A stretch of DNA of 64,000 bases from an uncultured Candidatus Saccharibacteria bacterium. Its GTDB lineage: Bacteria > Patescibacteriota > Minisyncoccia > Phycocordibacterales > UBA9973. Location of the stretch: contig CAYYSI010000001.1 of assembly GCA_964474435.1 (NCBI GenBank), positions 126,647 to 190,646 on the forward strand. The letters are read 5' to 3'. Of this stretch, positions 7,162-60,688 are shown piece after piece (the first letter of the stretch is position 1; every line of letters begins with the position of its first letter). Under the pieces are notes generated by a model, which was not told the DNA's origin, searched no databases, and saw nothing but the letters and a program-made list of their open reading frames with translations. Both the position numbers and the translations under genes were made by a program.

Positions 7162-7518
7162 ATGAAAATTACAGCCATGAAAAAAATATTTATTGTTCTG
7201 TTCATTCTTATTACGTCAGTACTTACTCTCCATGCACAAGCAAAACCATATGGTGGTCCTCCGGGCAACATGGTCAGTCGTGCCGATCCTGTCATAGACA
7301 CACTATTTATTGCAGTCGACGCAAATCTGGTTCCGGAATACAAAAGTGATCTAGTGTATGTGCAAATAAAAAGTGCAGTTTCTCTAACGGGTAAACGATC
7401 CTTTCGTACAACCAAGAAAAAATTTGCTGAGCTTCAAAAACAAAGACAAGGTAAACCAATATTAATTTCCCTCGTTGATGGAGAGCTTGGTGAATACTGG
7501 GTAACAAATGAGTACTAA
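7162..7518 (+). CDS. Secreted hypothetical protein
   Basis: N-terminal signal peptide MKKIFIVLFILITSVLTLHAQA. 118 aa. Confidence 0.5.
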   Translation: MKITAMKKIFIVLFILITSVLTLHAQAKPYGGPPGNMVSRADPVIDTLFIAVDANLVPEYKSDLVYVQIKSAVSLTGKRSFRTTKKKFAELQKQRQGKPILISLVDGELGEYWVTNEY

Positions 7519-7623: not shown

Positions 7624-8001
7624 CTAGATCATTCCGTGAAGTTCTTTTGTCTTTTGTACACGTTGATTGAACTCATCACCCACATCTTCATCTTTTAGAA
7701 CTTGAAGCGTATAGGTTGCTGTTTTTGTTTTTATCGTGTAGTAGTCATTTTCCAGAGGTATGATTTCGGTAATAGTGATGGTTACACTCTGTCTATTTAA
7801 TTCTTCAAGTCTTATTTTTTCTCCAACCCGGCACCAACTGGCTAGTCTGCCTGCCATGATAGTTCCGATAGGAAATAAGGCTACATGCTTTGGGGCAATT
7901 TCTGTTTTTGTTAAAAAAATAGGAGCGCCTAACATAATCAGTGTATCTGCTTTCATATTATTTTTTTTCATAACCATATAACTCAAAGTATGTATTGTCA
8001 A
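7624..8001 (-). CDS. Hypothetical protein
   Basis: 125-aa ORF flanked by terminator hairpins on both sides. No family recognised. Confidence 0.4.
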   Translation of the reverse strand: MTIHTLSYMVMKKNNMKADTLIMLGAPIFLTKTEIAPKHVALFPIGTIMAGRLASWCRVGEKIRLEELNRQSVTITITEIIPLENDYYTIKTKTATYTLQVLKDEDVGDEFNQRVQKTKELHGMI

Positions 8002-14169: not shown

Positions 14170-14850
14170 TTACATAGCTACTATTGTATCAATTATTGCC
14201 AATACCTCCTTTCGAAAGTCAGCCTCATTATCCATAAGGTCTTTCACAATGTTACAGGAGTATAAAACATTTGAATGATCTGTACTACCAAAGTATTCCG
14301 CAATAGATTTTAAAGAATAAGGAGTAACCATTCTCGCTAAATACCTAATAATTTGTCGCACGGTAGCGATATCTGCCTTATTTGTTTTCTCAAATATTTT
14401 TTCATAAGGGATATCGAAAAAATTACATACAGTATGAGATATATTCTCTATAGTAATTGCAGACGTGCGACTTTGAGTGATTCCAAAAACACCAGGTATC
14501 CGAAATCTATCATAAATATCATGCAATATCTGAATATTTTCTGTAGACAAAGTTTTCTTTTGTCTGTTATCTGATGTAAATCCTGCTAAAATAAAATCAT
14601 TTTTTTGTGACTGTTTTATTTCCCTAATAATTTTATAGATAAAAGCAGGTGAGTTTTTTAGAAATTCATCCGTTTTAAAATTTACAAAAATAATAGGCCA
14701 GGATCTTCGTAGTGTACTTTCTCTCAAGCACTGTAATGTATTCACTGGAATCAAAGTCATATTTTCATTTTTTGATACGATCTTTATATATTCCAAGAAT
14801 TCACGGTGACCTGCTGTTTTTGGGTCATATAGTAATATTTCGTTATTCAT
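14170..14850 (-). CDS. DnaA C-terminal (domain IV) DNA-binding domain protein without AAA+ module
   Basis: C-terminal 70 aa ATVRQIIRYLARMVTPYSLKSIAEYFGSTDHSNVLYSCNIVKDLMDNEADFRKEVLAIIDTI matches the Bac_DnaA_C helix-turn-helix. No Walker A in the N-terminal 130 aa. Low-GC gene. Confidence 0.55.
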   Translation of the reverse strand: MNNEILLYDPKTAGHREFLEYIKIVSKNENMTLIPVNTLQCLRESTLRRSWPIIFVNFKTDEFLKNSPAFIYKIIREIKQSQKNDFILAGFTSDNRQKKTLSTENIQILHDIYDRFRIPGVFGITQSRTSAITIENISHTVCNFFDIPYEKIFEKTNKADIATVRQIIRYLARMVTPYSLKSIAEYFGSTDHSNVLYSCNIVKDLMDNEADFRKEVLAIIDTIVAM

Positions 14851-16480: not shown

Positions 16481-18268
16481 ATGATGGGCGGTATGAAATA
16501 CAAGACGCAGTGGGATTTGACCCTTTTGTATAAGAGCGAAAAGGATCCACAGATAGAGAAGGATGTACAAATGGTTGAAAACCTCTGTGCTCAGTTTGAA
16601 AAGAAGTATAAAGGTAAAAACTTTACTAGTTCTGCACAAAGACTCGCTATTGCTTTGAAAGAGTATCACGCAATGTCTGATTCATCTCTATATCGGCCGT
16701 GGTTTTATTTTTATCTCATCAAAGAAATTGATGCAAATAATACGTATGCACAAGCACAGTACACAAGTATTGAACAACGGATCAATATTGCAAGTAACAA
16801 AGTCGCCTTCTTTGTGCTTGATATTGCAAAAATACCACCTGTAACCCAAAAGAAATATCTAAAAAATAAGGATCTTGAAGTATATAGATATTACCTTCTA
16901 AAAATATTTACTACTGCAAAATATAATCTCTCTGAAAAAGAAGAGCAGTTGTTACTGTTGCTGGCTCAAACAAGTGAGACAATGTGGGCAAGCGCTCAGC
17001 AGAAACTCCTAGGCAATCAACACGTAGTATTTAAAGGGGTTACGATTCCAATATCGGAAGCAAAAGCAAAGGTAGCAGAACTTCCACTTGAAGAACGATA
17101 CGATCTTTCGCAAAAGATTAGTACAGTCTCAAAAGAGATTAGTTTTATGGCAGAAGCAGAGCTCAATGCGATCTATAATTTTCACAATACTGTCAATACA
17201 TTAAAGAAGTATAAGACGCCCTACAGTGCCAGCGTACTTTTAAAGGAAAATACAGAAGAAGAAATAAAAGCTTTTGCTGAGCTCGTTACTGAATACTTTT
17301 CTCTCAGTCAAAGATTTCATGTACTTCATGCAAAGCTCCTTGGTCTCAAAAAATTAAGACTTGCAGATCGACGAGTAAATATAGGTAAGGTCAACAAAAC
17401 ATTTGATTTTGAACAATCTCTTTCACTAACTAGGTCCGCACTAGGAAAAGCCGGAACTCAGTATTCAAAAATCCTTGATCGTTTTATACATAATGGCCAA
17501 ATCGATGTACTCCCTCGCAAAGGTAAACAGGCTGGGGGATTTTGCGTGACCGTCGGAGAATTGCCAACATATATATTGCTCAACCATACCAATGATGTGC
17601 AATCAGTAGAAACATTTGCTCATGAGATGGGGCACGCGATTCATGGTGAGCTGAGCAAGAAACTACCTCGACACTATCAAGCATATTCAGGTTCTGTGGC
17701 AGAAGTTGCGAGCATGTTTTTCGAGCAATTTGTTGGATTAGAACTTGAGCAGTACTTAACCGAAGAAGAACAACTATTTATGCTTCACCGAAAGGTATGT
17801 GAAGATGTGTTTGCAATTTTTTGCCAGATTGCATGTTTTAATTATGAGCTGGAACTCCATGAGCGCATCAAGAAAGAAGGTCAAGTATCTGCCCAGGATA
17901 TGGCAGAGATGATGAATAAGCATATGCAGGCATATTGCGGCCCGGCAATGAACATATTGGCAGATGATGGATATTTGTTTGTGACATGGCATCACCTTCG
18001 ATATAATTTCTACACATATACGTATGCGTACGGTGGTTTGATTAGTCGTGCACTATTTGAAAATTGGAAAAAAGATAATTCATATATGAAAAAAATTGAA
18101 CAATTTCTCTCGGCTGGTGGCTCAATGAGCCCCAAAGATATTTTCAAATCCATCGGCATCAATACTGATAAGAAATTCTTTGAAGCAGGACTGAGGGGGA
18201 TTGAAGCTGATATTGATAAACTTGAAAAACTCTCAAAGAATTGGCTAAAAAATAAAAGAGGGAAATAG
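16481..18268 (+). CDS. pepF: Oligoendopeptidase F (M3 family)
   Basis: HEMGHAIH zinc motif and M3B-like length (595 aa). Low GC. Confidence 0.8.
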   Translation: MMGGMKYKTQWDLTLLYKSEKDPQIEKDVQMVENLCAQFEKKYKGKNFTSSAQRLAIALKEYHAMSDSSLYRPWFYFYLIKEIDANNTYAQAQYTSIEQRINIASNKVAFFVLDIAKIPPVTQKKYLKNKDLEVYRYYLLKIFTTAKYNLSEKEEQLLLLLAQTSETMWASAQQKLLGNQHVVFKGVTIPISEAKAKVAELPLEERYDLSQKISTVSKEISFMAEAELNAIYNFHNTVNTLKKYKTPYSASVLLKENTEEEIKAFAELVTEYFSLSQRFHVLHAKLLGLKKLRLADRRVNIGKVNKTFDFEQSLSLTRSALGKAGTQYSKILDRFIHNGQIDVLPRKGKQAGGFCVTVGELPTYILLNHTNDVQSVETFAHEMGHAIHGELSKKLPRHYQAYSGSVAEVASMFFEQFVGLELEQYLTEEEQLFMLHRKVCEDVFAIFCQIACFNYELELHERIKKEGQVSAQDMAEMMNKHMQAYCGPAMNILADDGYLFVTWHHLRYNFYTYTYAYGGLISRALFENWKKDNSYMKKIEQFLSAGGSMSPKDIFKSIGINTDKKFFEAGLRGIEADIDKLEKLSKNWLKNKRGK

Positions 18269-18287: not shown

Positions 18288-18797
18288 TTGTATAGTGTTA
18301 AAAAATTACATCACCAAAAAATACGACATATGTACTTACAAATTCAAATACCACTCTGGTATTGGCAAGCTGGAATGTTAGTTCTTCTGATACTGGTATT
18401 GATCGGCATAGTTTGGATAGCACACCTACAGAAAAGAAATAAAGAATTGAAAGAAGAAAGAAGTAATCCGTTGACTATCGATGACTCTTATGTAGGAAAA
18501 GTGTTTTATCCAATCAACTTTTTTGATCGATACAATAGAAATACATCCTCACTATTTGATTCGAAAAGTTCCATTGTAAAGGCGCTTGTTAATGATTCTG
18601 AATCAGTATATTATTTTGAAATTTCAAATGAACAGATTATTGAGCAGTTAAAGCAACATCACAACAAAGTGTATGTGTTGGAAACGAGAACAGTCAATGG
18701 TGGTAAAAAGGAGTTTTACTTCAAAGTAATCAATACTGCTAGAGAACTAAGTTATTACAAAACCAATTTCTCAAAGATTTTGTACTCAGAGGTGTAA
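18288..18797 (+). CDS. Membrane-anchored hypothetical protein
   Basis: TM helix LVLLILVLIGIVWIA. Low GC. Confidence 0.4.
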   Translation: MYSVKKLHHQKIRHMYLQIQIPLWYWQAGMLVLLILVLIGIVWIAHLQKRNKELKEERSNPLTIDDSYVGKVFYPINFFDRYNRNTSSLFDSKSSIVKALVNDSESVYYFEISNEQIIEQLKQHHNKVYVLETRTVNGGKKEFYFKVINTARELSYYKTNFSKILYSEV

Positions 18798-28764: not shown

Positions 28765-29076
28765 ATGAAAACATGTTGTGTCCTTTTTATTGCCATTATT
28801 CTTTTTTCTGCATGCCAGGAAAAAAACGTGTATGAAAGAGTTACTATCATCAGGAAGATTTCTATCGAAGAAATGCATCCGCCTCTACTACTAGCAAGAC
28901 CTCTTGCGGCTAAACAACTCCTTGATGGTTCATGTTACGTATTAGTGGAGGCTTCTGATCACTACCAGTACGTTGTTGTAAATCCAAAATGTGAATATCC
29001 TAACCGTGCCACTGTTAGGGTTTCCGTGGATACTAGTGGCAATAAATTCCCGGTGATACTTCATCGAGTGAAATAA
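28765..29076 (+). CDS. Small lipoprotein, hypothetical
   Basis: Signal peptide with lipobox LFSAC. Low GC. Confidence 0.45.
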   Translation: MKTCCVLFIAIILFSACQEKNVYERVTIIRKISIEEMHPPLLLARPLAAKQLLDGSCYVLVEASDHYQYVVVNPKCEYPNRATVRVSVDTSGNKFPVILHRVK

Positions 29077-35381: not shown

Positions 35382-35831
35382 ATGTTGATGGTAAAAACTA
35401 AAATTAAAGAAAGTACAATTCTTGGAGCAGGTATGGGGCTCTTCGCTTCTCAATTTATTGCAAAAGGAACAGTGATGTGGAGGTTCTGTCCCGGGTATGA
35501 CCTAATCGTTCCAAAAGATGATTTGTTACGGTTTTCTGAAGAATCACGTGCCCAATTTTTGAACTACTGTTATTTCAACAAGAAGACAAAACACTTCATT
35601 CTCTGTGGTGATGACGAACGATTTATTAATCATTCTGAAAACCCGAATGTTATTCAAAGTGAAACGGGAGATGAGATTGAGGGTGTAGAACTTGCGGCTC
35701 GCGATATACAGATTGGTGAGGAATTGTTTGTAAATTACTACGAATTTGATGAAGATGCGGAACGTAAACTCAAGAATGGCGATATGAGTATGTATCTCAA
35801 ATACGAAGAAGGGAATCAAAACACACTATGA
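35382..35831 (+). CDS. SET-domain protein (putative lysine methyltransferase)
   Basis: RFINHSENPN...GEELFVNYYEF matches SET core motifs NHSxxPN and ELxxxY. It starts 2 nt after the lysS stop and overlaps the next gene by 4 nt. Confidence 0.65.
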   Translation: MLMVKTKIKESTILGAGMGLFASQFIAKGTVMWRFCPGYDLIVPKDDLLRFSEESRAQFLNYCYFNKKTKHFILCGDDERFINHSENPNVIQSETGDEIEGVELAARDIQIGEELFVNYYEFDEDAERKLKNGDMSMYLKYEEGNQNTL

Positions 35832-41061: not shown

Positions 41062-41092
41062 AAAAAACTCTCCAAATGGAGAGTTTTTTCTA
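41062..41092. terminator. Bidirectional intrinsic terminator
   Basis: aaaaaactctcc-aaat-ggagagtttttt. Confidence 0.7.
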
Positions 41093-41410
41093 TTTTTCAA
41101 GATCCTGAAGAAGTTGATGTATTGTATTTGTTGCCTTTACTACCGGGCCTTCTTTATCTTGCTCATTGTTGTTTGAATAAACAAGTCTTTCGTAGTCGGC
41201 TGCCTCCTCAAGAAGTTGTTGCGCTTTGTTTAGCTTCTCAATAAAAACCTCTCTAATCTCTTCAAGTTTGCCATCATGTCTAGCCAAAATAGCTTGGTAG
41301 GCATCAGCAGAAACTTCTCTTTTTCCACCTTTAGATTCTTCGAGAAGAGCGGTTGATGATTTAATAGCATCTGATTTTTCCCAGGCATCTCCTATAGTTT
41401 CTAAGCTCAT
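41090..41410 (-). CDS. Hypothetical coiled-coil protein
   Basis: 106-aa ORF. Low GC. Confidence 0.4.
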   Translation of the reverse strand: MSLETIGDAWEKSDAIKSSTALLEESKGGKREVSADAYQAILARHDGKLEEIREVFIEKLNKAQQLLEEAADYERLVYSNNNEQDKEGPVVKATNTIHQLLQDLEK

Positions 41411-41460: not shown

Positions 41461-42063
41461 CTACTCTCTCTTTTTAAGCGATGCATTCAAACTCATCGCA
41501 TCAGCGTATTCGAGTTCTGCGCCAGATGATAGTCCGCGGCCGAGGCTTGAGAGTTTGAGTGTTGGGGCGATTGGAGTGATCATTTCGCGGATGGCTTGAT
41601 CAGTGTGTTCGCCATTGGGGGTAAGAGGGAAGGCGAGGATGACTTCGGTCAATACTGAGCCATTTTCTTTTTTGATGCGCTCGAGGAGCTGGTTTGCATG
41701 TGTTGCTGCAATCGTTACTTTTTGAATGATAGGAATGAGTCCGCCAAGGACGAAAAAGAGTCCGCGATAGTCAGTCCGTTCAAATGAATCAATATCCTGG
41801 CTTTTCTCTACAACGACGATCGTTGACTGGTCGCGACGTATATCGCTACACATATCACACGTGCCGGGTGTGCCTTCGTATATGCGCATACACCGTGTGC
41901 AGGTATGGGCTTGTCCGCGAGCCTCAAGGAGTGTTTTGGCAAGGGTCGCCACATAGTGTTCTGGCTGCGTCAATATGAAATACGCGAAGCGATGTGCCTG
42001 CCGTGTCCCAATCCCAGGGAATTTCAAAAAAAGTTGTGCGAGACGTTCAAGTTCTTGTTGCAT
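41461..42063 (-). CDS. recR: Recombination protein RecR
   Basis: HhH LFLKFPGIGTRQAHRFAY, C4 zinc finger CTRCMRIYEGTPGTCDMC, Toprim. The track start 42072 is a TTG. ATG at 42063. Confidence 0.9.
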   Translation of the reverse strand: MQQELERLAQLFLKFPGIGTRQAHRFAYFILTQPEHYVATLAKTLLEARGQAHTCTRCMRIYEGTPGTCDMCSDIRRDQSTIVVVEKSQDIDSFERTDYRGLFFVLGGLIPIIQKVTIAATHANQLLERIKKENGSVLTEVILAFPLTPNGEHTDQAIREMITPIAPTLKLSSLGRGLSSGAELEYADAMSLNASLKKRE

Positions 42064-42342
42064 CACGTACAAAATAGGAAACGCTTTAAACGGTTCTTGA
42101 GAAACGCCCAGCCCCTCCCTGATTTAAGATATAATTCTCTCGACCGAGCATCTTCTTCTGTAAGGCATGCTTCATAGTAAATGATTGTATAGGGGCCTCG
42201 ACCTTTTGTATATGTTGATTTTCCCTCATTATGTTCTTTAAAGCGTTTCCGTAAATCACTTGTATATCCTATATATAATTTATTATTTTTCAGACTTCTT
42301 AATACATAGGTGTAATAAAACTTTTCCATATTTTGTACGTGA
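42062..42342. mobile_element. Candidate TIR-bounded miniature element carrying the GIY-YIG gene
   Basis: Left ATCACGTACAAAAT (42062-42075) and right ATTTTGTACGTGA (42330-42342) are inverted copies of the same motif that brackets 1629-1727. The 20-nt left ends of the two loci match 19/20. The interior is low GC. Confidence 0.35.
42063..42329 (-). CDS. Free-standing GIY-YIG nuclease-domain protein (YhbQ/UPF0213-like)
   Basis: YYTYVLRSLKNNKLYIGYTSDLRKRFKEHNEG is a GIY...YIG motif. Its TGA overlaps the recR ATG by 1 nt (TGATG). It is flanked by the inverted 13-mer repeats at 42062-42075 and 42330-42342. Low GC. Confidence 0.8.
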   Translation of the reverse strand: MEKFYYTYVLRSLKNNKLYIGYTSDLRKRFKEHNEGKSTYTKGRGPYTIIYYEACLTEEDARSRELYLKSGRGWAFLKNRLKRFLFCT

Positions 42343-43793: not shown

Positions 43794-44762
43794 ATGATAT
43801 CCCCTAAGAAACGCCTCCTTTCAGGCGTCAAACCTACAGGTCGACCACATATTGGCAACTACTTTGGAGCAATGAAGCAGTTTGTCGATCTCCAAGACCA
43901 ATACGAAACATTCGTATTCATCGCAGATCTGCACGCACTCAACTTCATCCAAAACAAAGAAGAGATGGTACAGCTCTCGCACGACCTTGTACTCGACTAT
44001 CTGGGCATAGGACTTGATCCAAAAAACATCACTTTGTTCAAACAGTCCGCAGTGCCTGCACATACCCAGCTCACGTGGATATTTGACACACTCATCACGG
44101 TGCCATTTATGATGCGCGCGCATGCGTACAAAGACGCAGTTGCCAAAGACATCGAACCGAGCATGGGACTTTTTACATACCCAGTACTTATGGCGGCAGA
44201 TATATTGATGTATGACGCCGATGTCGTGCCTGTGGGCAAAGACCAGAAGCAGCATATTGAGTACGCGCGAGACATTGCAGGGAAATTTAACAATCAATAT
44301 GCAGAGTTATTTAAGCTCCCAAAAGATCTGATCCTGCCTGATGTAGAAACAGTGCCCGGTACTGACGGTCAGAAAATGTCCAAGAGTTATGGCAACACGA
44401 TCCCACTTTTTGCAACTGATGCAGAGATTGAAAAAGCAGTCATGAGTATTGCAACTGATTCACGCGGCAAGGATGAAGAAAAGAATCCCGACGACATAGT
44501 GCTCTATCAGATCCACAAACTTTTTAATGATTCTACAGAACTCAAATCTCAATACCGACAAGGCCTCGGCTACGGCGATGCAAAGAAAATGCTCATAGCT
44601 GACATCATCACCTTTGTTACTCCAATGCGCGAACGCCGCAAGATCTATGAAAATGATCCAAAACTTGTTCAAGAAATCCTCCTAAATGGCGCGATGAAAG
44701 CAAATGATATTGCGATGAAGAAATTGACGAATGTGTATGAGGCGGTGGGGTTGACGGAATAA
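43794..44762 (+). CDS. trpS: Tryptophanyl-tRNA synthetase
   Basis: KRLLSGVKPTGRPHIGNYFGA (HIGH-type) and KMSKS. The track ORF begins at 43740. The likely start is ATG at 43794. Confidence 0.9.
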   Translation: MISPKKRLLSGVKPTGRPHIGNYFGAMKQFVDLQDQYETFVFIADLHALNFIQNKEEMVQLSHDLVLDYLGIGLDPKNITLFKQSAVPAHTQLTWIFDTLITVPFMMRAHAYKDAVAKDIEPSMGLFTYPVLMAADILMYDADVVPVGKDQKQHIEYARDIAGKFNNQYAELFKLPKDLILPDVETVPGTDGQKMSKSYGNTIPLFATDAEIEKAVMSIATDSRGKDEEKNPDDIVLYQIHKLFNDSTELKSQYRQGLGYGDAKKMLIADIITFVTPMRERRKIYENDPKLVQEILLNGAMKANDIAMKKLTNVYEAVGLTE

Positions 44763-44764
44763 GT

Positions 44765-45415
44765 ATGAAAAAATATATACCTAAAATACATTTTATATAT
44801 ACATGGGCATTCGATAATTTTCAACGAGCTAATTTTGAAAAAAACGGTATAGAGTATCCTTCTGTGGATAAAGTATCAGATGGCGTAGTGCATATACGAA
44901 AATTATGGGATGAAGTAAATAAGGATGATAAAGTCATCAAAGGTATTGTTGATATCTTAGGTATCACTCGTGAATATGATTTCGAATTTTTTATATATGG
45001 AAAAGGAAGGCTTGGTGCAATTTCTACGCCACTTATGCTCGGTTTATACCCCAAAGAAGGTGAGTGTTATCCTGATGCAGAGTTATTGGAAGTGATTGTA
45101 CATGAACTTCTTCATCGATTTATACAATCTCCGCGCTGGGAAAAACACCCTCAGAAAGAGTATTGGGATTATATTAAAAAAGAAGCGTATCCTGATTTAC
45201 TTTTAGCAACACAAAACCATATATTACTGTATGCGGTATTAGAAAAACTTCGCCCTTTGATTTTTACACCCGAACAAATCGATCAAATAAATATCTCTTT
45301 GGCGCAACCTCTAAAGCCGGGGTATATAGAAGCCATTAATATGGTCAAAGAAAAAGGTGCTGATTTTTTCATCAAAGAATTTACTGATCGAATCATTCGA
45401 TATGAAGATGACTAA
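44765..45415 (+). CDS. Hypothetical protein with HExxH motif (possible zinc hydrolase)
   Basis: VIVHELLHRF. Low-GC island gene. No further family assignment. Confidence 0.4.
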   Translation: MKKYIPKIHFIYTWAFDNFQRANFEKNGIEYPSVDKVSDGVVHIRKLWDEVNKDDKVIKGIVDILGITREYDFEFFIYGKGRLGAISTPLMLGLYPKEGECYPDAELLEVIVHELLHRFIQSPRWEKHPQKEYWDYIKKEAYPDLLLATQNHILLYAVLEKLRPLIFTPEQIDQINISLAQPLKPGYIEAINMVKEKGADFFIKEFTDRIIRYEDD

Positions 45416-45962
45416 CAACCCACTAGACGGCTGGGATGGATACTATGATGCGGTTGGGGGCGACCATTCGTCAGCTCTTGAGCGAGCTGTTAGAGATTAT
45501 TGTAAAGAAAGAGGCTATGCCTTAGATATTGGCGCAGGGAATTTACGGGATACAAAATTTTTATTGAAAGAAGGGTTTATTGTGACCGCTATAGATCCGT
45601 CTCCGGGATCAGTATTGGCTGCAGAAAAGATGCGTGATCCGAATTTCACTATGTTTCAAGGTTTTGCTGGAGCATATCAATATCCTGAAAACCATTTTTC
45701 AATTATTAACGCACAACAGATATTATTTCACTTTCCAAAAGATCGATTTGATTTCAATCTTGAAAAAATTAGTTATTCTTTAAAGCAAGGCGGTATCTTG
45801 TGTGCGAATTTCCTTGGGGAAAAAGATACATGGAATCATGAAGGAACAAAGATGACTATAACTCCGGCACAAGATTTGCCAGATATTCTAAAAGGTTTTG
45901 AAATTGTCTATATAAAGGAACATGAACGAGATCAGACAGAGGAATTTGCTAAAAAGAAGTGA
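45402..45962 (+). CDS. Class I SAM-dependent methyltransferase (TehB-like), copy 1
   Basis: Motif I ALDIGAGNLRDTKFLLKEGFIVTAIDPSP. Paralog of 47543-48097. Confidence 0.7.
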   Translation: MKMTNNPLDGWDGYYDAVGGDHSSALERAVRDYCKERGYALDIGAGNLRDTKFLLKEGFIVTAIDPSPGSVLAAEKMRDPNFTMFQGFAGAYQYPENHFSIINAQQILFHFPKDRFDFNLEKISYSLKQGGILCANFLGEKDTWNHEGTKMTITPAQDLPDILKGFEIVYIKEHERDQTEEFAKKK

Positions 45963-46012
45963 GATGTGACTGCAAGACACGAGCATCAAATAGTAGTTAT
46001 AGCGATAAAGAA

Positions 46013-46903
46013 ATGAAACTAGAAAGGCTCGACACTCATACTAAAATTCTGGGAGCGATAGAAAAATCTGTCATACCATTTACGCTATTTGGTTCTCCTC
46101 ATGTTCTCAATACTTTTTTCAATAATACTGGATTTGAGTTATGGAGCGCAGAGTTTGAAAATGAAACATATATATTTGTTCGGAAGGTGGATAGAAAATT
46201 TGTTCAAAACGAACTTCGATTGCTGTTTAAGAAATTCCCAGATGAATTAGTCGATCAGCTCAAGAAAGAATTTGATCCACCATATATTGCATACAATGAA
46301 CTACTTGAAGACCAGCATGACGAAAGACAAATAGAAGACATTGAAGTGGTGGTTGATGTCAAAAAATATGTAGATCTCGCATATGCCCCAATGCGCAAGC
46401 ATTATAAACAAGCAGTTAAACATAATTCTTCATTAGAAATAAAAGAGTTTAAAAATATCCCCATAGAGCACCTGCAAGAGTTTTGGAAATCGTGGCTTGC
46501 ACAGCGAGCAGAGCGCCCGTATGCGGCAGATCGAACACATAATGATGCAAAATTCTTCAACATATATTCTGATCAAGAATATTTTGGCGTAGTAGCCTAT
46601 GAAGGAGATAGAATTGTCGCGTATTCTATAGGAATAGGTTTTGATGAAGGGAAGTGCATTAGCGTTTTTAATAAATGCTTACAAGGATATACCAATCTTG
46701 GATTACAGATTTCATACGAAAAAGCACTATTGGCAGAAAAGAAAGGGTATAACAAAATTGCACTTGGGGGTATTAATAATGACTTCAAAAAACAGTTTCT
46801 TCATATAGCTGACACAATGCTTTTATACGGTATCGAGCTATTTCGAAAGCCAGATTTCACTACAAAGAGCCCGAATGGATATACATATGCCTTATTCTTT
46901 TAG
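46013..46903 (+). CDS. MprF-C/FemAB-like (DUF2156-like) putative aminoacyl-tRNA-dependent transferase fold protein
   Basis: WLAQRAERPYAADRTHNDAKFF...VVAYEGDRIVAYSIGIGFDEGKCISVFNKCLQGYTNLGLQISYEKALLAEKKGYNKIALGG resembles the LPG-synthase C-terminal/FemX GNAT-like region. This is a tentative assignment. The track start 45959 is a GTG. Confidence 0.35.
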   Translation: MKLERLDTHTKILGAIEKSVIPFTLFGSPHVLNTFFNNTGFELWSAEFENETYIFVRKVDRKFVQNELRLLFKKFPDELVDQLKKEFDPPYIAYNELLEDQHDERQIEDIEVVVDVKKYVDLAYAPMRKHYKQAVKHNSSLEIKEFKNIPIEHLQEFWKSWLAQRAERPYAADRTHNDAKFFNIYSDQEYFGVVAYEGDRIVAYSIGIGFDEGKCISVFNKCLQGYTNLGLQISYEKALLAEKKGYNKIALGGINNDFKKQFLHIADTMLLYGIELFRKPDFTTKSPNGYTYALFF

Positions 46904-46931
46904 TTGACTTTTATATAAAATTGCGTATAAT
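46904..46931. promoter_or_regulatory. Promoter TTGACT-16-TATAAT
   Basis: Read directly. 20 nt upstream of the 46952 gene. Confidence 0.55.
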
Positions 46932-46951
46932 GATAAAAAATCATTTATAGT

Positions 46952-47446
46952 ATGTCAGCACTTAAACAACTTAGAAACATAGTATTTTCTGGCGGAACAG
47001 TACTCCATGGGACCAAGGCTTGTTTCAATGAAATTAAGCCGAGAATGACTGATGGAGAAGTAGCTGTTTGTGCAACAGTAATACCTGAAATCGCCCTTTA
47101 TTCAGCGCTTATCAGTAGAACCCCTGGGTACAAGCTCGGTGGAGGCGCATGGAACTTTATCAGAAAAGACGGAAATTTATCTCTAGTCTTTCGCATTACA
47201 CAAAAACGGTTAGATTTTCTTTTGTCAGATCCAGTATTACAAGGGTATGTGTACCCATTAGATACGTACGATTTTGAAAAAAGGAATTCAGCCGAATCCA
47301 GATTGTATAAATCAAGATTCCTAAGAAAGAAAATATTGGTGACGGATGATGACCTTCCGTTTCAACCAATACCTGGAAAGCTTGAGTACTGGATTCAACT
47401 ACCGTACAAAATGAAGCACCATTTTGTTATTGAGCAACTTTTATGA
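46952..47446 (+). CDS. Hypothetical protein (164 aa)
   Basis: ORF with its own consensus promoter. No family recognised. Confidence 0.45.
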   Translation: MSALKQLRNIVFSGGTVLHGTKACFNEIKPRMTDGEVAVCATVIPEIALYSALISRTPGYKLGGGAWNFIRKDGNLSLVFRITQKRLDFLLSDPVLQGYVYPLDTYDFEKRNSAESRLYKSRFLRKKILVTDDDLPFQPIPGKLEYWIQLPYKMKHHFVIEQLL

Positions 47447-47453
47447 ATTGTAA

Positions 47454-47510
47454 GACCCAGAAATATTTCTGGGTCTTTTATATTGACATTATTTAAATAA
47501 AATGTATTAT
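47454..47510. promoter_or_regulatory. Terminator hairpin (agacccagaaatatttctgggtct) fused to promoter TTGACA-16-TATTAT
   Basis: Read directly. Same terminator-promoter cassette architecture as 31688-31744 and 33376-33432. Confidence 0.55.
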
Positions 47511-47542
47511 GTTAAAAACTAACTTTTTAAAAAAAATAACTG

Positions 47543-48097
47543 ATGATGCAAACATGGAATCATTATTATCAAATGCGACCCCCAGAGCCCTCTATGGAAT
47601 TGATCAAAGCATTACCCAATGTTGTTACCGGTAGAAAGGCTCTTGATATCGGCTGCGGATCATTAATTGAAGGTTGTTTTCTTTTAGAAAAAGGATTTAC
47701 GATCACAGCCATTGATCCTGACCCTTTTGCAGAGCTATATGCTAAAGAAAATAAACATGATCAGCTTACCTTTTTACCTATTCCAGCAGAGGAGTACAAT
47801 TACCCATCGGAACATTTTGATCTAGTGTATGCCATGCGTTGTTTATCGTATGTTCCCAGAAAATATCTGATGGGAATAATAAGATCGGTATACAACAGTT
47901 TGGTCAAAAAGGGAGTATTCGTCTTTGAACTACTCGAAGGGGATGATAGGTGTAAAAAAATATATGAAGGCAGAGGAAGCGTGTATTCTCCATCAGAAAT
48001 TCAAGATCTCATTCTTCCTTTTGAAGTAAAGAAACTTGAGAGTTTACGCACAAATGACCTAGGTGCTCGCATTATTGATATTGTGACTATTAAGTGA
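47543..48097 (+). CDS. Class I SAM-dependent methyltransferase (TehB-like), copy 2
   Basis: Motif I ALDIGCGSLIEGCFLLEKGFTITAIDPDP. Near-identical motif spacing to copy 1. Confidence 0.7.
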   Translation: MMQTWNHYYQMRPPEPSMELIKALPNVVTGRKALDIGCGSLIEGCFLLEKGFTITAIDPDPFAELYAKENKHDQLTFLPIPAEEYNYPSEHFDLVYAMRCLSYVPRKYLMGIIRSVYNSLVKKGVFVFELLEGDDRCKKIYEGRGSVYSPSEIQDLILPFEVKKLESLRTNDLGARIIDIVTIK

Positions 48098-48127
48098 ATT
48101 GAAGCCCGGCAGCCCCGGGCTTTTTGT
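48098..48127. terminator. Intrinsic terminator
   Basis: gaagcccgg-cagc-cccgggcttttt. Confidence 0.6.
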
Positions 48128-48180
48128 TTGCGTGGGTTTGAGAATGGAGATATCATATAGGTAAATTAAAATCTACTGCG

Positions 48181-48315
48181 ATGAAAGCACACGTTCAACG
48201 AGTAATATCTCTATGGGATTTACTCATATTTGCAAGTCGTGAAGTGCAACCTATCGAAAGAAAGAATGTAAGGAGAGAAGATAGGAGGCGAAAACGCAGA
48301 CCACTCAAACTGTAA
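48181..48315 (+). CDS. 44-aa ORF with Arg-rich C-terminus between two terminators (alternative reading: small ncRNA); not in track
   Basis: MKAHVQRVISLWDLLIFASREVQPIERKNVRREDRRRKRRPLKL. Followed by the hairpin cagcccg-cgag-acgggctg plus a T-rich tail (48322-48352). No clear SD. Confidence 0.2.
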   Translation: MKAHVQRVISLWDLLIFASREVQPIERKNVRREDRRRKRRPLKL

Positions 48316-48417
48316 TAATCCTAAAAACCAGCCCGCGAGACGGGCTGTTGACTTTTATTGTGCCAGGCGTAAAGTTGTGGGAAAGGTAGTCATTTAAAAA
48401 ACTTAAACTCAATACTC

Positions 48418-48819
48418 ATGCAGCAGAAACCGATTGCTTCGCAAAATGAACCACTCCTTGATGGTTGCGGTTCTCCAACAGTTTTTGATGGTAAACCACA
48501 CGCCGCATACACCACAGTAAATGTGCCAGTAAGTACCACGCAAACAATGCCGTATTCCTTTCAACAATCACAGGACGGTTCTGCTTGTGGAGTAAATACA
48601 GAACCTGCTCAGGGAAACAGTACCATTACCTCTAATGTTGAGGGAACAAAAACCACAACTGTGAACACTACAAATGGAGAGTCTGGGAAGTTAAGAAGAG
48701 AATATCCTTTAGTTATTATTCCATTACTTCTTTTTTCGTCCATAGTTTTTTGCGGTATTATGTTCTACACTGTGCGTCATTGGTTTATAACGGGACGTTT
48801 CTTTACATTACCCGACTAG
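48418..48819 (+). CDS. C-terminally TM-anchored hypothetical protein
   Basis: T/N/Q-rich soluble region then a C-terminal TM (LVIIPLLLFSSIVFCGIMFYTV). Confidence 0.45.
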   Translation: MQQKPIASQNEPLLDGCGSPTVFDGKPHAAYTTVNVPVSTTQTMPYSFQQSQDGSACGVNTEPAQGNSTITSNVEGTKTTTVNTTNGESGKLRREYPLVIIPLLLFSSIVFCGIMFYTVRHWFITGRFFTLPD

Positions 48820-48886: not shown

Positions 48887-50323
48887 ATGCGAGGACTTAT
48901 GGAACGAACATATATTGGGGATTTGGGGGCAAAGGCAGGGGAGACAGTATTGATCAAGGGCTGGATTGATGTGCGTCGCGACCAGGGCAAGATGGTCTTT
49001 TTTGACTTCCGCGATATGACTGGCACCATCCAAGGTGTCGTCCTCCCAATGCGCCCAGAGGTCATCGAGATCGCAAAGACATGCCGCCCAGAAACAGTTG
49101 TGGCCGTCGAAGGCATTGTGAACAAACGCCCAGAACGCAATATCGTTGCCGATAAACAAAATGGCGATATAGAACTTGAGGTTACTGATATCAAAATTTT
49201 GAACCACGCAGAGCCACTTCCATTTGAGATCAATGTCGATACCAAAGAAGTCGGCGAAGATGTGCGCCTCAAGCATCGCTATCTCGACCTGCGCTCTGCT
49301 CGTATGCAACACAACATGCGCAAGCGTGCCGAAGTCGTGCAGTATGTACGCAACTTTTTGCAAGGTGAAAAATTTATCGAAGTAGAAACGCCGATCCTTA
49401 CCAAGAGTACCCCAGAAGGCGCACGTGACTACATCGTGCCCGCACGACTCTATCCAGGAACATTTTATGCACTCCCGCAGTCACCGCAGCAGTACAAACA
49501 GCTCCTCATGAGTGCTGGTATCGAACGATACTTCCAGTTTGCAAAGTGTATGCGAGATGAGGATGGACGAGGGGATCGTCAACCAGAATTCACCCAGCTC
49601 GACATGGAGCTCTCATTCGTCGATCGCGAAGACGTCATGCGGCTCAATGAAGCACTCCTTATCGATATCGTCACGAAACTCTTTCCTGAGAAAAAGATTC
49701 AACAGGTTCCGTTTCCACGTATTTCATACGCTGACGCAATGTCTAAATACGGCAATGATCGACCAGATATTCGCGAAGACAAAGATGATCCAAATCTCCT
49801 CGCATTTTGCTGGATCGTAGATTTTCCATTCTTTGAACGCACTGACAAGAGCGACAATCCACAGGCAGAAGGTGAATGGACATTCACACATAATCCATTT
49901 TCTCGTCCGATCGAAGAGCACATGCAGAACCTCATGGAGAAAAAAGATCTCGCATCTATCCTCACAACACAATATGATATTTGTCTCAACGGCTACGAGA
50001 TCGGGGGAGGATCAATCCGCAACCACACCTATGACGCACTCATGAAAGTCTTTGAAATCCTCGGACACAGCGCCGACGACATCGAAGCAAACTTCGGGCA
50101 CATGCTCACTGCATTCAAGACCGGTACTCCTCCACACGGCGGACTCGCCTGGGGATTTGATCGCCTCATGATGCTCCTCCTCAACGAACCAAACATCCGC
50201 GAAGTCATGGCATTCCCAAAGACGGGCGAAGGCAAGGATCCAATGATGCAGTCCCCATCAGAAGTCTCTCAAAAGCAACTGGATGAGCTCAATATTGTAT
50301 TGAAAAAAGTTGAGAAGAAATAA
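48887..50323 (+). CDS. aspS: Aspartyl-tRNA synthetase, short (archaeal/ND-type, no GAD insertion)
   Basis: OB-fold N-term, class IIb motifs (FIEVETPILTKSTPEGARDY, QSPQQYKQLLM, GGLAWGFDRLMM). About 478 aa, versus about 590 for typical bacterial AspRS. The track start 48824 is likely too early. Confidence 0.85.
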   Translation: MRGLMERTYIGDLGAKAGETVLIKGWIDVRRDQGKMVFFDFRDMTGTIQGVVLPMRPEVIEIAKTCRPETVVAVEGIVNKRPERNIVADKQNGDIELEVTDIKILNHAEPLPFEINVDTKEVGEDVRLKHRYLDLRSARMQHNMRKRAEVVQYVRNFLQGEKFIEVETPILTKSTPEGARDYIVPARLYPGTFYALPQSPQQYKQLLMSAGIERYFQFAKCMRDEDGRGDRQPEFTQLDMELSFVDREDVMRLNEALLIDIVTKLFPEKKIQQVPFPRISYADAMSKYGNDRPDIREDKDDPNLLAFCWIVDFPFFERTDKSDNPQAEGEWTFTHNPFSRPIEEHMQNLMEKKDLASILTTQYDICLNGYEIGGGSIRNHTYDALMKVFEILGHSADDIEANFGHMLTAFKTGTPPHGGLAWGFDRLMMLLLNEPNIREVMAFPKTGEGKDPMMQSPSEVSQKQLDELNIVLKKVEKK

Positions 50324-50359: not shown

Positions 50360-50764
50360 TTACCAACCAGAAACTCTGATGCCAACAGCTTTAGGTGTAG
50401 GATCTACAGTATCATCTACGGGTTGATCCCAAATTTCACAGGTTTCTCCAATAAGATCCTGCTCAAATACAAAGTCTAAACATTTTACAAAAAGAGCAAA
50501 ACTCCATAAGGGAAGATGGGCGAATTCAAATGTAGACATTTTAAATACCTCAATTTTAACTTCCTGTTCCCCTTCCTTTGCGGCAGATTTTACCTGCTCA
50601 ATCAAATTCTTTTGGAACTCAGAAAATTTTTTGGCAATAATTTTCTCGCCAGTCTCATATGATTTCCAAAAATTCTGCTTCTTTTTATTGAGATCTATTT
50701 CATAATTTTGAGAAACTGCAGTAGTAGAGGATGTTGTCAGCTCTGCAAGATTTAACTTTTTCAT
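50360..50764 (-). CDS. Hypothetical protein (134 aa)
   Basis: Low-GC ORF preceded by a long ORF-free upstream region. Confidence 0.45.
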   Translation of the reverse strand: MKKLNLAELTTSSTTAVSQNYEIDLNKKKQNFWKSYETGEKIIAKKFSEFQKNLIEQVKSAAKEGEQEVKIEVFKMSTFEFAHLPLWSFALFVKCLDFVFEQDLIGETCEIWDQPVDDTVDPTPKAVGIRVSGW

Positions 50765-60022: not shown

Positions 60023-60688
60023 GTGTATACTTACAGTATGAAAAGAAGCACAAAAGTCGTTGTATTTATTATTATCTTAACGCTCATTGCGTTTGGTATC
60101 AATGCAGCTAAAAAGGCACATGAAAATGCACAAACAAACACTATTACTACAGATATACCCAATCCTTTGAAATTGTTTAATACATTTAATGGGGTGACAT
60201 TTGATAAAAAACCTTTCATATTTAATTATCCAGCTGAAGGATCATTTAATACAACAGGTTGGGATATAGCTCCCTGGAGAGTAGGGGGACAAACAACTGA
60301 TGGTGGAGGACTAGCCGCTATTGCAATTCCCGCCTCAATACAACCAAATACAAATTTTAGAGGTGCAATATTTATGCTAGGTGCAGGGAGTACTAGTAAC
60401 GCAGTTAAAGACTGTCTGATTGCAACAAATGGAGAAATAGAGGTAGGCAATCTGACAATTAACGGTGTAGTGTATAAAAAATTTACTCTGAGTAATGCTG
60501 GCGCAGGGAACTTTTATGAAACAACGAGCTATCGAACTGTTCGCGACAACAGTTGTTACGCAGTCGAATACACTATCCATACAACCAACATTGCGAATTA
60601 CAGCCCAGATCAAGGCATCAAAGAATACGACAAAGCTTCTGTAACAAAAATTCTTGAAGATATGGTTCAGAGCTTCAAATTCATCTAA
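60023..60688 (+). CDS. Secreted/membrane-anchored hypothetical protein
   Basis: N-terminal signal anchor VVVFIIILTLIAFGINA. Confidence 0.45.
   Translation: MYTYSMKRSTKVVVFIIILTLIAFGINAAKKAHENAQTNTITTDIPNPLKLFNTFNGVTFDKKPFIFNYPAEGSFNTTGWDIAPWRVGGQTTDGGGLAAIAIPASIQPNTNFRGAIFMLGAGSTSNAVKDCLIATNGEIEVGNLTINGVVYKKFTLSNAGAGNFYETTSYRTVRDNSCYAVEYTIHTTNIANYSPDQGIKEYDKASVTKILEDMVQSFKFI

Follow-up and report, generated by a model that had tools for sequence, protein, structure and literature searches.

A divergent DUF2156 protein encoded next to trpS in a variable, low-GC slot of Candidatus Saccharibacteria genomes

Among the known counterparts of the protein analyzed here are the MprF-type aminoacyl-lipid synthases, the free-standing fungal ErgS, and fusions with an aminoacyl-tRNA synthetase (aaRS), such as the mycobacterial LysX, in which LysRS is fused to MprF. 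The characterized DUF2156 enzymes all esterify lipid hydroxyls, namely those of phosphatidylglycerol (PG), diacylglycerol and ergosterol (PMC8913301, PMC7334510), and contain, as a characteristic feature, a positively charged helix, alpha(+), which separates the two halves of the tandem GNAT and is required for the use of tRNA (PMC8913301). In the fungal ErdS/ErdH pair and in bacterial aminoacyl-PG systems, the hydrolase gene adjoins the synthase gene (PMC7334510). Here, we analyze the interval between trpS and aspS, hereafter the slot, in a 64,000-nucleotide (nt) stretch of a Candidatus Saccharibacteria genome (contig CAYYSI010000001.1, positions 126,647-190,646; this whole stretch is the window, and slot positions are given in its coordinates), and in particular gene C of this slot. 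Saccharibacteria, or TM7, are ultrasmall epibionts with little biosynthetic capacity.

Gene C encodes a soluble, free-standing and highly divergent tandem-GNAT protein of the DUF2156 (LPG_synthase_C) family that is conserved and subject to purifying selection; it represents a DUF2156 subfamily that falls below the Pfam threshold and whose operonic linkage with aaRS genes is conserved in a lineage of the candidate phyla radiation. Compared with the PF09924 profile (LPG_synthase_C/DUF2156), C scores 23.7 bits, below the gathering cut-off of 27.5, and the match covers only model positions 101-201, a third of the model. Seven of the nine relatives of C that were scanned score 21-30 bits, only one of these (P0014, 29.9) passing the cut-off, and the remaining two show no match at E<=0.1. 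The assignment to DUF2156 follows from the agreement of the predicted fold, a widened sequence profile and a direct profile-profile alignment. The AlphaFold2 (AF2) model, built from 18 homologues, has a pLDDT of 91.5 and a pTM of 0.87, and its top Foldseek matches in the PDB are Weissella FemX (E=2.7e-11, TM 0.62), Sbb17/Sba18, the MprF catalytic domains and the DUF2156 protein 2hqy (TM 0.72); the first 28 matches are all aminoacyl-tRNA-dependent transferases or DUF2156 proteins, save the uncharacterized 3frm. A profile of the 18 close homologues found nothing in the PDB; the profile widened to 66 sequences, which were drawn from an exhaustive HMMER search and include distant representatives, matched 2hqy, a bona fide PF09924 member (242 bits), at E=2e-22, with residues 3-281 of C aligned to residues 2-293 of 2hqy. 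In the hhalign comparison, C matched a canonical Saccharibacteria DUF2156 protein (L004 g301) with 99% probability. The relatives are Candidatus Saccharibacteria metagenome-assembled genomes; loci are labelled with L numbers, of which L001 is from the genome of the window and L015-L017 lie outside Saccharibacteria. The family of C is tiny, with 18 clusters among 5.8 billion proteins and 97 cluster representatives at E<=0.001 among 1.84 billion, and appears to be confined to Patescibacteria; a search of the literature for this family in Saccharibacteria or Patescibacteria found no paper.

Besides its C gene, L004 carries a second, canonical free-standing DUF2156 gene (807-1712; 301 aa (amino acids), PF09924 59 bits) located upstream of a histidine-kinase gene; the window contains no counterpart of this gene.

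The conserved residues of C point to use of charged tRNA. K259 is invariant in 66/66 aligned sequences, and conservation reaches at least 90% at K221 and W161; among the 18 close homologues, N256, F258 and K259 are all invariant and form an N-x-F-K motif (N256-D-F258-K259). In the AF2 model, two beta-sheet/helix halves flank a predicted basic helix, residues 125-137 (APMRKHYKQAVKH), that is located between the two GNAT halves and carries R128, K129, K132 and K136; R128 and K129 are at least 90% conserved, and Y131 and A134 are invariant. In the model, this helix appears to match the alpha(+) helix of the DUF2156 enzymes. The catalytic residues of FemX are F304-K305, and those noted in DhpH-C are N325/F328/K329 (PMC12945691); by motif and position, the F-K motif of C is a candidate equivalent of FemX Lys305. 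No match of C to PF02388 (FemAB) was detected at E<=1, although some relatives of C weakly match PF13480, a FemAB-like GNAT family. No transmembrane segment was found in C, the maximum 19-residue hydropathy being 1.12. Taken together, the family membership, the basic helix and the F-K motif suggest that C is an aminoacyl-tRNA-dependent transferase, and the fold of this kind that a preliminary description of the locus, made from the DNA alone, had proposed for the 296-aa protein was recovered by the family search, AF2 and Foldseek as that of a FemX-like outlier of DUF2156/LPG_synthase_C.

Among the distant homologues, P0046 (470 aa) and P0067 (1307 aa) contain a C-type domain fused to a RimL/RimJ-like GNAT domain (PF13302), and four others (787-934 aa) carry long unannotated extensions; in the long fusion proteins (787-1307 aa), no informative Pfam domain was found other than the RimL-like GNAT in two.

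The gene order around the slot is cysS-corA-rplU-recR-dnaB-trpS-[slot]-aspS-scpA-scpB-mraY-ftsW-murG, and C is located just 3' of trpS in every C-bearing Saccharibacteria locus with visible flanks, either directly or after one or two genes (11 loci: L002, L004, L006, L008, L010, L011, L014, L018, L029, L031 and L033). The trpS gene is 81-88% identical to its close relatives and was found upstream of C wherever the flank is visible; aspS lies 3' of the slot in nearly all relatives, with the exception of L014, where C is followed by a convergent pseudouridine-synthase-like gene. Across 28 pairs, C and trpS diverge in step (Spearman 0.89 between their identities), from 67% identity for C and 88% for trpS down to 30-34% and 38%, respectively. 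In all relatives, the slot genes show low GC content at third codon positions (GC3); in L004, for example, GC3 is 0.60 in trpS and 0.64 in aspS versus 0.27-0.33 in the slot genes. The trpS-aspS interval thus is a vertically inherited, compositionally distinct slot of variable content, an old resident of Candidatus Saccharibacteria genomes, given that the position, the low GC3 and the co-divergence of C with trpS are all conserved among the relatives. The link to the flanking aaRS genes that had been suggested from the window is real and holds across the relatives.

Two types of aspS border the slot: genes for proteins of 473-501 aa that are about 86% identical (the window, L002, L004, L011) and genes for proteins of 430-445 aa with 31-47% identity (L006, L008). 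Meanwhile, trpS stays 66-88% identical, which suggests that aspS was replaced in place among the relatives.

In the window, seven plus-strand open reading frames (ORFs), denoted A to G, fill the trpS-aspS interval, and all were found where the preliminary description had placed them. The features are as follows.

43794..44762, plus strand: trpS, tryptophan--tRNA ligase, 322 aa (ATG 43794; TIGR00233 299 bits, PF00579), the conserved left border of the slot
44765..45415, plus strand: A, 216-aa HExxH protein, a putative minimal zincin with an M1/thermolysin-like catalytic domain
45402..45962, plus strand: B, 186-aa class I SAM methyltransferase (Methyltransf_25 and Methyltransf_11 above cut-off)
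46013..46903, plus strand: C, 296-aa free-standing tandem-GNAT protein, divergent DUF2156/LPG_synthase_C, the anchor gene of the slot
46904..46931, plus strand: promoter-like TTGACT-16-TATAAT 5' of D (11/12 matches)
46952..47446, plus strand: D, 164-aa orphan with its own promoter and terminator
47452..47477, plus strand: intrinsic-terminator-like hairpin 3' of D (11-bp stem, then T run)
47483..47510, plus strand: promoter-like TTGACA-16-TATTAT 5' of E (11/12 matches)
47543..48097, plus strand: E, 184-aa class I SAM methyltransferase (Methyltransf_11 above cut-off)
48101..48123, plus strand: intrinsic-terminator-like hairpin 3' of E (9-bp stem with 6 GC pairs, then T run)
48181..48315, plus strand: F, 44-aa Arg/Lys-rich ORF (14 Lys+Arg) between two terminators
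48329..48347, no strand assigned: bidirectional terminator-like hairpin 3' of F (hairpin and T run)
48418..48819, plus strand: G, 133-aa orphan; one transmembrane helix, C-terminal
48899..50323, plus strand: aspS, aspartate--tRNA ligase (NF001750 608 bits), the conserved right border of the slot

The trpS stop codon ends 2 nt ahead of the start of A, and the coding regions of A and B overlap by 8-14 nt. The most likely start of C is ATG 46013, the methionine from which all 18 homologues (18/18, 292-296 aa) align, and with the start so placed, B and C are separated by a 50-nt gap; the translational overlap initially proposed for three genes is therefore confined to A and B. No terminator was predicted between trpS and the end of C, and accordingly, the two genes are probably co-transcribed. 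D and E do have the TTGACT and TTGACA promoters of their own that had been noticed, and these are the two best sigma-70-like promoters of the region. The two promoters have a common extended -10 context, GTAT(A/T)ATG(A/T)TAAAAA, at 46925-46941 and 47504-47520, which hints at a shared regulatory design or a promoter duplication. The terminator reported after the second methyltransferase gene was located at 48101-48123, and two more that had gone unmentioned follow D and F. The 320-nt spacer that contains F folds modestly better than shuffled sequences (z = -2.1), mostly owing to two terminator hairpins. The likely start of aspS is ATG 48899 (MERTYIGD...) rather than GTG 48824, and the resulting N-terminus agrees with the aspS starts of L004 and L011.

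The GC content of positions 44765-48819 is 36.9%, compared with 44.6% in the rest of the window, and no other 4-kb stretch in the window has a lower value (z = -3.8); individual genes across the slot range from 33.8 to 41.5%. The GC content of about 30% given earlier for the block holds only for GC3, which is 0.24-0.33 in the slot genes versus 0.49-0.51 in trpS and aspS. Searches in and around the block found no tRNA gene, no Rfam match or structured RNA, no flanking direct or attachment-type repeats and no integrase. With C in synteny and at equally low GC in all relatives, the earlier label of an accessory island is misleading. Across the window, GC3 splits the ORFs into two classes, the housekeeping genes at about 0.45-0.58 and a low class at 0.22-0.35, that of the slot genes, which comprises 18/68 ORFs; 7/10 of the low-GC3 ORFs that were scanned have no Pfam match. 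Apart from the slot genes, the low-GC3 ORFs are the following, with minus-strand genes marked (-).

2500-2943, 7162-7518, 7624-8001(-), 14170-14850(-), 16481-18268, 18288-18797
28765-29076, 35382-35831, 41090-41410(-), 50360-50764(-), 60023-60688

Because the same split is kept in the relatives, low GC3 marks an old, lineage-specific class of genes rather than recent import. Of these ORFs, 35382-35831 (plus strand) encodes a 149-aa SET-domain protein (PF00856, 55.9 bits), a candidate unusual bacterial SET methyltransferase, and 14170-14850 (minus strand) encodes a 226-aa protein in which DnaA is represented by its C-terminal helix-turn-helix domain alone (PF08299, 71 bits).

The gene content of the slot varies among the relatives, as listed below (MT, methyltransferase; ABC, ABC exporter; NTase, nucleotidyltransferase).

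Window: A-B-C, D, E, F, G
L002: C-D
L004: MT-C-g255
L006/L013: MT-A-C-g198
L008: ABC-C-MT
L011: ABC-C-MT-another HExxH protein
L018: ABC-broken C-D
L025: ABC-MT-C
L029: MT-C
L031: ABC-MT-C-SIMPL
L032: ABC-ABC-NTase-like-MT-C
L033: ABC-MT-like-C
L019: ABC-D-lipoprotein with a putative metzincin motif (HExxHxxGxxH); no C
L022: NTase-like-A-g261-369-aa protein-59-aa protein; no C

A methyltransferase is encoded beside C in about 10/15 loci, and an ABC exporter in 7/14 loci, none being present in the window slot. The slot ABC protein is a half transporter similar to MsbA, HepA and glucan exporters, and its gene often abuts or overlaps its neighbor. A metagenome scan yielded seven further loci that are consistent with this picture and do not extend it.

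Variation is also seen between rplU and recR, a second variable slot that in the window holds a 106-aa orphan (41090-41410, minus strand). L011 has a pilin-like N_methyl protein at this place, and the occupants in L019 and L022 are a 149-aa orphan and a 101-aa protein, respectively. Between recR and dnaB, the window and L001 share a gene for an 88-aa GIY-YIG nuclease-domain protein (42063-42329, minus strand) that is not found at the same position in L002, L004, L006 and L008 and may be a small mobile or homing-type insertion.

Among the companions of C, A is a zincin-fold candidate, as its HExxH motif had indicated: H113, E114, H117 and R118 are invariant, and a conserved glutamate 23 residues past the second histidine, E140, is a candidate third metal ligand. 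The protein has no match in Pfam or NCBIfam and lacks the GxMEN exopeptidase motif, with LGAIS in its place; only five homologues are known, all encoded in the trpS-aspS slot. The second HExxH protein, L011 g215, shows no detectable homology to A (hhalign 1.5%).

Both B and E are class I SAM methyltransferases, B scoring 38.3 bits with Methyltransf_25 and 36.9 bits with Methyltransf_11, and E scoring 41.6 bits with Methyltransf_11, with a second score of 37.8 bits, in addition to matches to _25, _12 and _23, all above the cut-offs of these generic families. The more specific assignment to TehB was rejected: with PF03848 (cut-off 20.4 bits), B reaches 13.6 bits and E 18.6 bits, and NCBIfam TehB models give 22-30 bits where 218-303 would be required. 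Motif I, described as near-identical in the two proteins (DIGAGN and DIGCGS in B and E), is identical at 18/29 positions, and the full-length identity is 29% (E=8e-20). B, with 47-53% identity to the slot methyltransferases of L004, L011 and L032, is orthologous to the common slot methyltransferase, the one found with C in most relatives. E, the nearest relative of which is the L008-type slot methyltransferase (36% identity), represents a separate lineage, a distant paralogue of B, and the two are not recent duplicates. The nearest PDB sequence matches of the methyltransferases are uncharacterized or UbiG-like methyltransferases.

The remaining genes, D, F and G, are lineage-specific additions. 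For D, six homologues were found, with H19, C40, E27, E46, D104, E115 and R117 invariant, and the gene recurs in the slots of L002, L018 and L019; searches of Pfam, NCBIfam, PHROGs and the PDB, also with a profile, gave no match. In G, the N-terminal part is rich in Thr, Ser and Gln, and one strong transmembrane segment lies toward the C-terminus (residues 98-116; Kyte-Doolittle maximum 2.67), in line with the tail anchor that had been assigned to it; the protein shows neither a family match in the libraries nor a homologue in the related loci. F is doubtful as a real gene, with no family match in the libraries and no counterpart in any related locus that was fetched.

These observations are best explained by a scheme in which the slot is a lineage-specific module, with C aminoacylating a lipid or another envelope molecule from a charged tRNA and the product then being methylated and, in the relatives, exported; we hold this scheme tentatively, with confidence that falls just short of even. 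The core of it, a pairing of an aminoacyl-tRNA-dependent transferase with a methyltransferase linked to aaRS genes, is plausible. C would take the aminoacyl group from a charged tRNA, most plausibly one supplied by the flanking synthetases, Trp-tRNA(Trp) or Asp-tRNA(Asp), which are natural donor candidates given that the known DUF2156 fusions join the transferase to the synthetase that makes its donor. Binding of the acceptor stem would be the task of the basic inter-domain helix (R128/K129), and N256-x-F258-K259 would keep the aminoacyl ester in place in the way Lys305 does in FemX, before the amino acid is passed to an acceptor, a lipid or an envelope-associated molecule, at a hydroxyl or amino group. 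Such an acceptor is the default guess because lipid hydroxyls are what the characterized DUF2156 enzymes esterify. The product could then be methylated by a class I methyltransferase, B in the window along with the paralogue E, and in half of the relatives, it might be flipped or exported by the MsbA-like ABC exporter that is translationally coupled to C, mirroring the MprF layout. More speculatively, hydrolysis or turnover of the product might fall to the putative zincin A, as an analogue of ErdH and the aminoacyl-PG hydrolases.

A bolder version of this scheme, which we regard as distinctly unlikely, would have the free DUF2156 transferase at trpS/aspS, the methyltransferase and the MsbA-type flippase constitute a split MprF-like system that aminoacylates and N-methylates host-scavenged lipids, possibly with tryptophan or aspartate. 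Saccharibacteria epibionts are not known to synthesize lipids themselves, which is the reason to propose scavenged lipids as the target, and if this version were true, it would amount to a lineage-specific remodelling of a borrowed membrane. We know of no precedent for a tryptophan donor in the DUF2156 family.

Several observations weigh against the aminoacylation module. The slot genes are found without each other, with C accompanied only by D in L002, A without C in L022, and the ABC exporter and D without C in L019, so that the genes may not form a single obligatory pathway; moreover, the exporter is missing from the window slot. Beyond Saccharibacteria (L015-L017), the homologues of C are located away from trpS, and their neighbors are inconsistent, including a CCA-adding enzyme, an Exo_endo_phos nuclease, a proteasome-like protein and, 3.5 kb off, LeuRS/ValRS. 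Even within Saccharibacteria, gene order in small, little-rearranged genomes can persist without functional coupling. As for C itself, its PF09924 score lies under the Pfam cut-off (23.7 vs 27.5 bits), and acyl-CoA-dependent tandem GNATs, which appear among the Foldseek matches from rank 29 on, are significant fold matches as well. Finally, the substrate specificity of DUF2156 enzymes cannot be read from their sequences (PMC8913301).

The main rival of the module is that the slot is a permissive insertion hotspot for unrelated, fast-evolving accessory genes that share no pathway and have no tie to trpS or aspS. Indeed, the content differs in almost every locus, any of the genes can occur alone, the methyltransferase can precede or follow C, D and E have their own promoters and terminators in the window, a second variable slot is found nearby between rplU and recR, and low-GC3 orphans are scattered over the whole window. 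Such a hotspot would not be expected to keep C in place down to 38% identity in trpS and 30-34% in C itself, the two genes co-diverging, nor would it account for the recurrence of C together with the methyltransferase and the ABC exporter, their coding regions overlapping or abutting. We consider this explanation unlikely but one to be taken seriously.

Two other enzymatic roles for C appear improbable, to a similar degree. One is that C acts like FemX or MurM, adding an amino acid to UDP-MurNAc-pentapeptide or lipid II to form an interpeptide branch: Weissella FemX gives the best Foldseek E-values, the invariant F-K motif of C is similar to F304-K305 of FemX (PMC12945691), weak matches to PF13480 occur within the family, and mraY, ftsW and murG lie 3-5 kb downstream in all loci. 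The profile homology of C, however, is to DUF2156 (2hqy, E=2e-22), with no PF02388 match at E<=1; a branching enzyme would be expected to be indispensable, whereas C is missing or broken in L018, L019 and L022, and the methyltransferases and the ABC exporter are foreign to the known Fem systems. The other is that C is an acyl-CoA-dependent tandem-GNAT acyltransferase and the slot a xenobiotic-modifying or resistance gene set suited to an epibiont living on antibiotic-producing Actinobacteria. The fold matches to the clavulanate tandem GNAT, glucosamine N-acetyltransferase and VipF are significant, the slots of the relatives include a nucleotidyltransferase-like gene and ABC exporters, and two distant homologues of C are fused to RimL-like GNAT domains; yet these fold matches rank under all the aminoacyl-tRNA-dependent enzymes, the full-length profile homology goes to DUF2156, and the basic inter-domain helix and the F-K motif of the tRNA-dependent members are conserved in C.

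A last reading, entertained in part in the preliminary description, takes the block for a foreign island of recent origin, for a cassette serving defence or anti-defence, or for a gene cluster for a ribosomally synthesized and post-translationally modified peptide with the 44-aa ORF as the precursor. It is largely refuted by synteny and scarcely credible: apart from the atypical composition, the matches of both methyltransferases to mad2 in PADLOC and the presence of the small Arg-rich ORF, nothing speaks for it, whereas the same genes, with C at the same site and at equally low GC3, are present in the relatives, no integrase, tRNA gene or flanking repeat is found, the mad2 matches reflect a generic SAM-binding methyltransferase domain with no nuclease, helicase or other defence component alongside, PHROGs gives only generic methyltransferase matches, and F and G have no homologue in the related slots.

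The aminoacylation module, if correct, would make C a transferase that diverts charged tRNAs and thus a testable candidate for envelope or lipid decoration in bacteria of the candidate phyla radiation; how Saccharibacteria build and tune their envelope is poorly understood, and C offers a lead. The family itself extends DUF2156 to a subfamily that is missed by the standard Pfam cut-offs and provides a bacterial counterpart, at the operon level, to the aaRS-DUF2156 fusions ErdS and LysX. More generally, the slot illustrates that low GC content of a block in such genomes need not indicate recent horizontal transfer and can instead mark genes of an old class that is passed on vertically.

The double-GNAT architecture of C is the same as in FemX, FemA and MurM as well as in Sbb17/Orf11, PacB, VlmA and DhpH-C, and FemX and the natural-product transferases give the best Foldseek E-values (2.7e-11 to 1e-9), and the (N)-x-F-K motif of C is a candidate equivalent of FemX Lys305 and DhpH-C Lys329. 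In BD-12 biosynthesis, N-methylation comes after the aminoacyl transfer. C differs in that it shows no match to the FemAB family at the sequence level, is not surrounded by a scaffold-biosynthesis cluster and is dispensable in some relatives. A resembles the M1/thermolysin-like gluzincins in the HExxH motif and the downstream glutamate, with the difference that, at only 216 aa, it would be a bare catalytic domain.

The catalytic domain of MprF, the Lys-PG and Ala-PG synthase, has the same fold and belongs to the same Pfam family as C, with 4v34, 4v36, 5vrv and 9goe among the top matches, and the layout of a flippase combined with a synthase is echoed by the exporter that adjoins C in half of the relatives. 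In contrast to MprF, C lacks the N-terminal 14-helix flippase domain and has no transmembrane segment; the exporter is an ABC half-transporter rather than an MprF flippase and is absent from this genome, and methyltransferase partners are not part of MprF systems. ErdS, the fungal AspRS-DUF2156 fusion (PMC7334510), resembles the arrangement of C beside aaRS genes in the physical coupling between the transferase and a synthetase that supplies its donor; with C, the coupling takes the form of operon adjacency to the housekeeping trpS and aspS genes, as opposed to the fusion to a dedicated paralogue seen in ErdS and LysX, and the candidate hydrolase A is a putative zincin, whereas the ErdH-type enzymes are alpha/beta hydrolases.

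The closest parallels are the free-standing proteins 2HQY from Bacteroides thetaiotaomicron and fungal ErgS, the ergosteryl-3beta-O-glycine synthase that uses Gly-tRNA and ergosterol. Like C, these consist of the tandem-GNAT DUF2156 fold alone in about 300 aa, with neither a membrane domain nor a fused aaRS, and the free-standing DUF2156 proteins share with C the basic helix between the GNAT halves and a conserved lysine near the C-terminus. The identity between C and these proteins is only 9-15%, with most members of the C family just under the PF09924 cut-off (21-30 bits), and unlike them, the C family is fixed beside trpS in Saccharibacteria.

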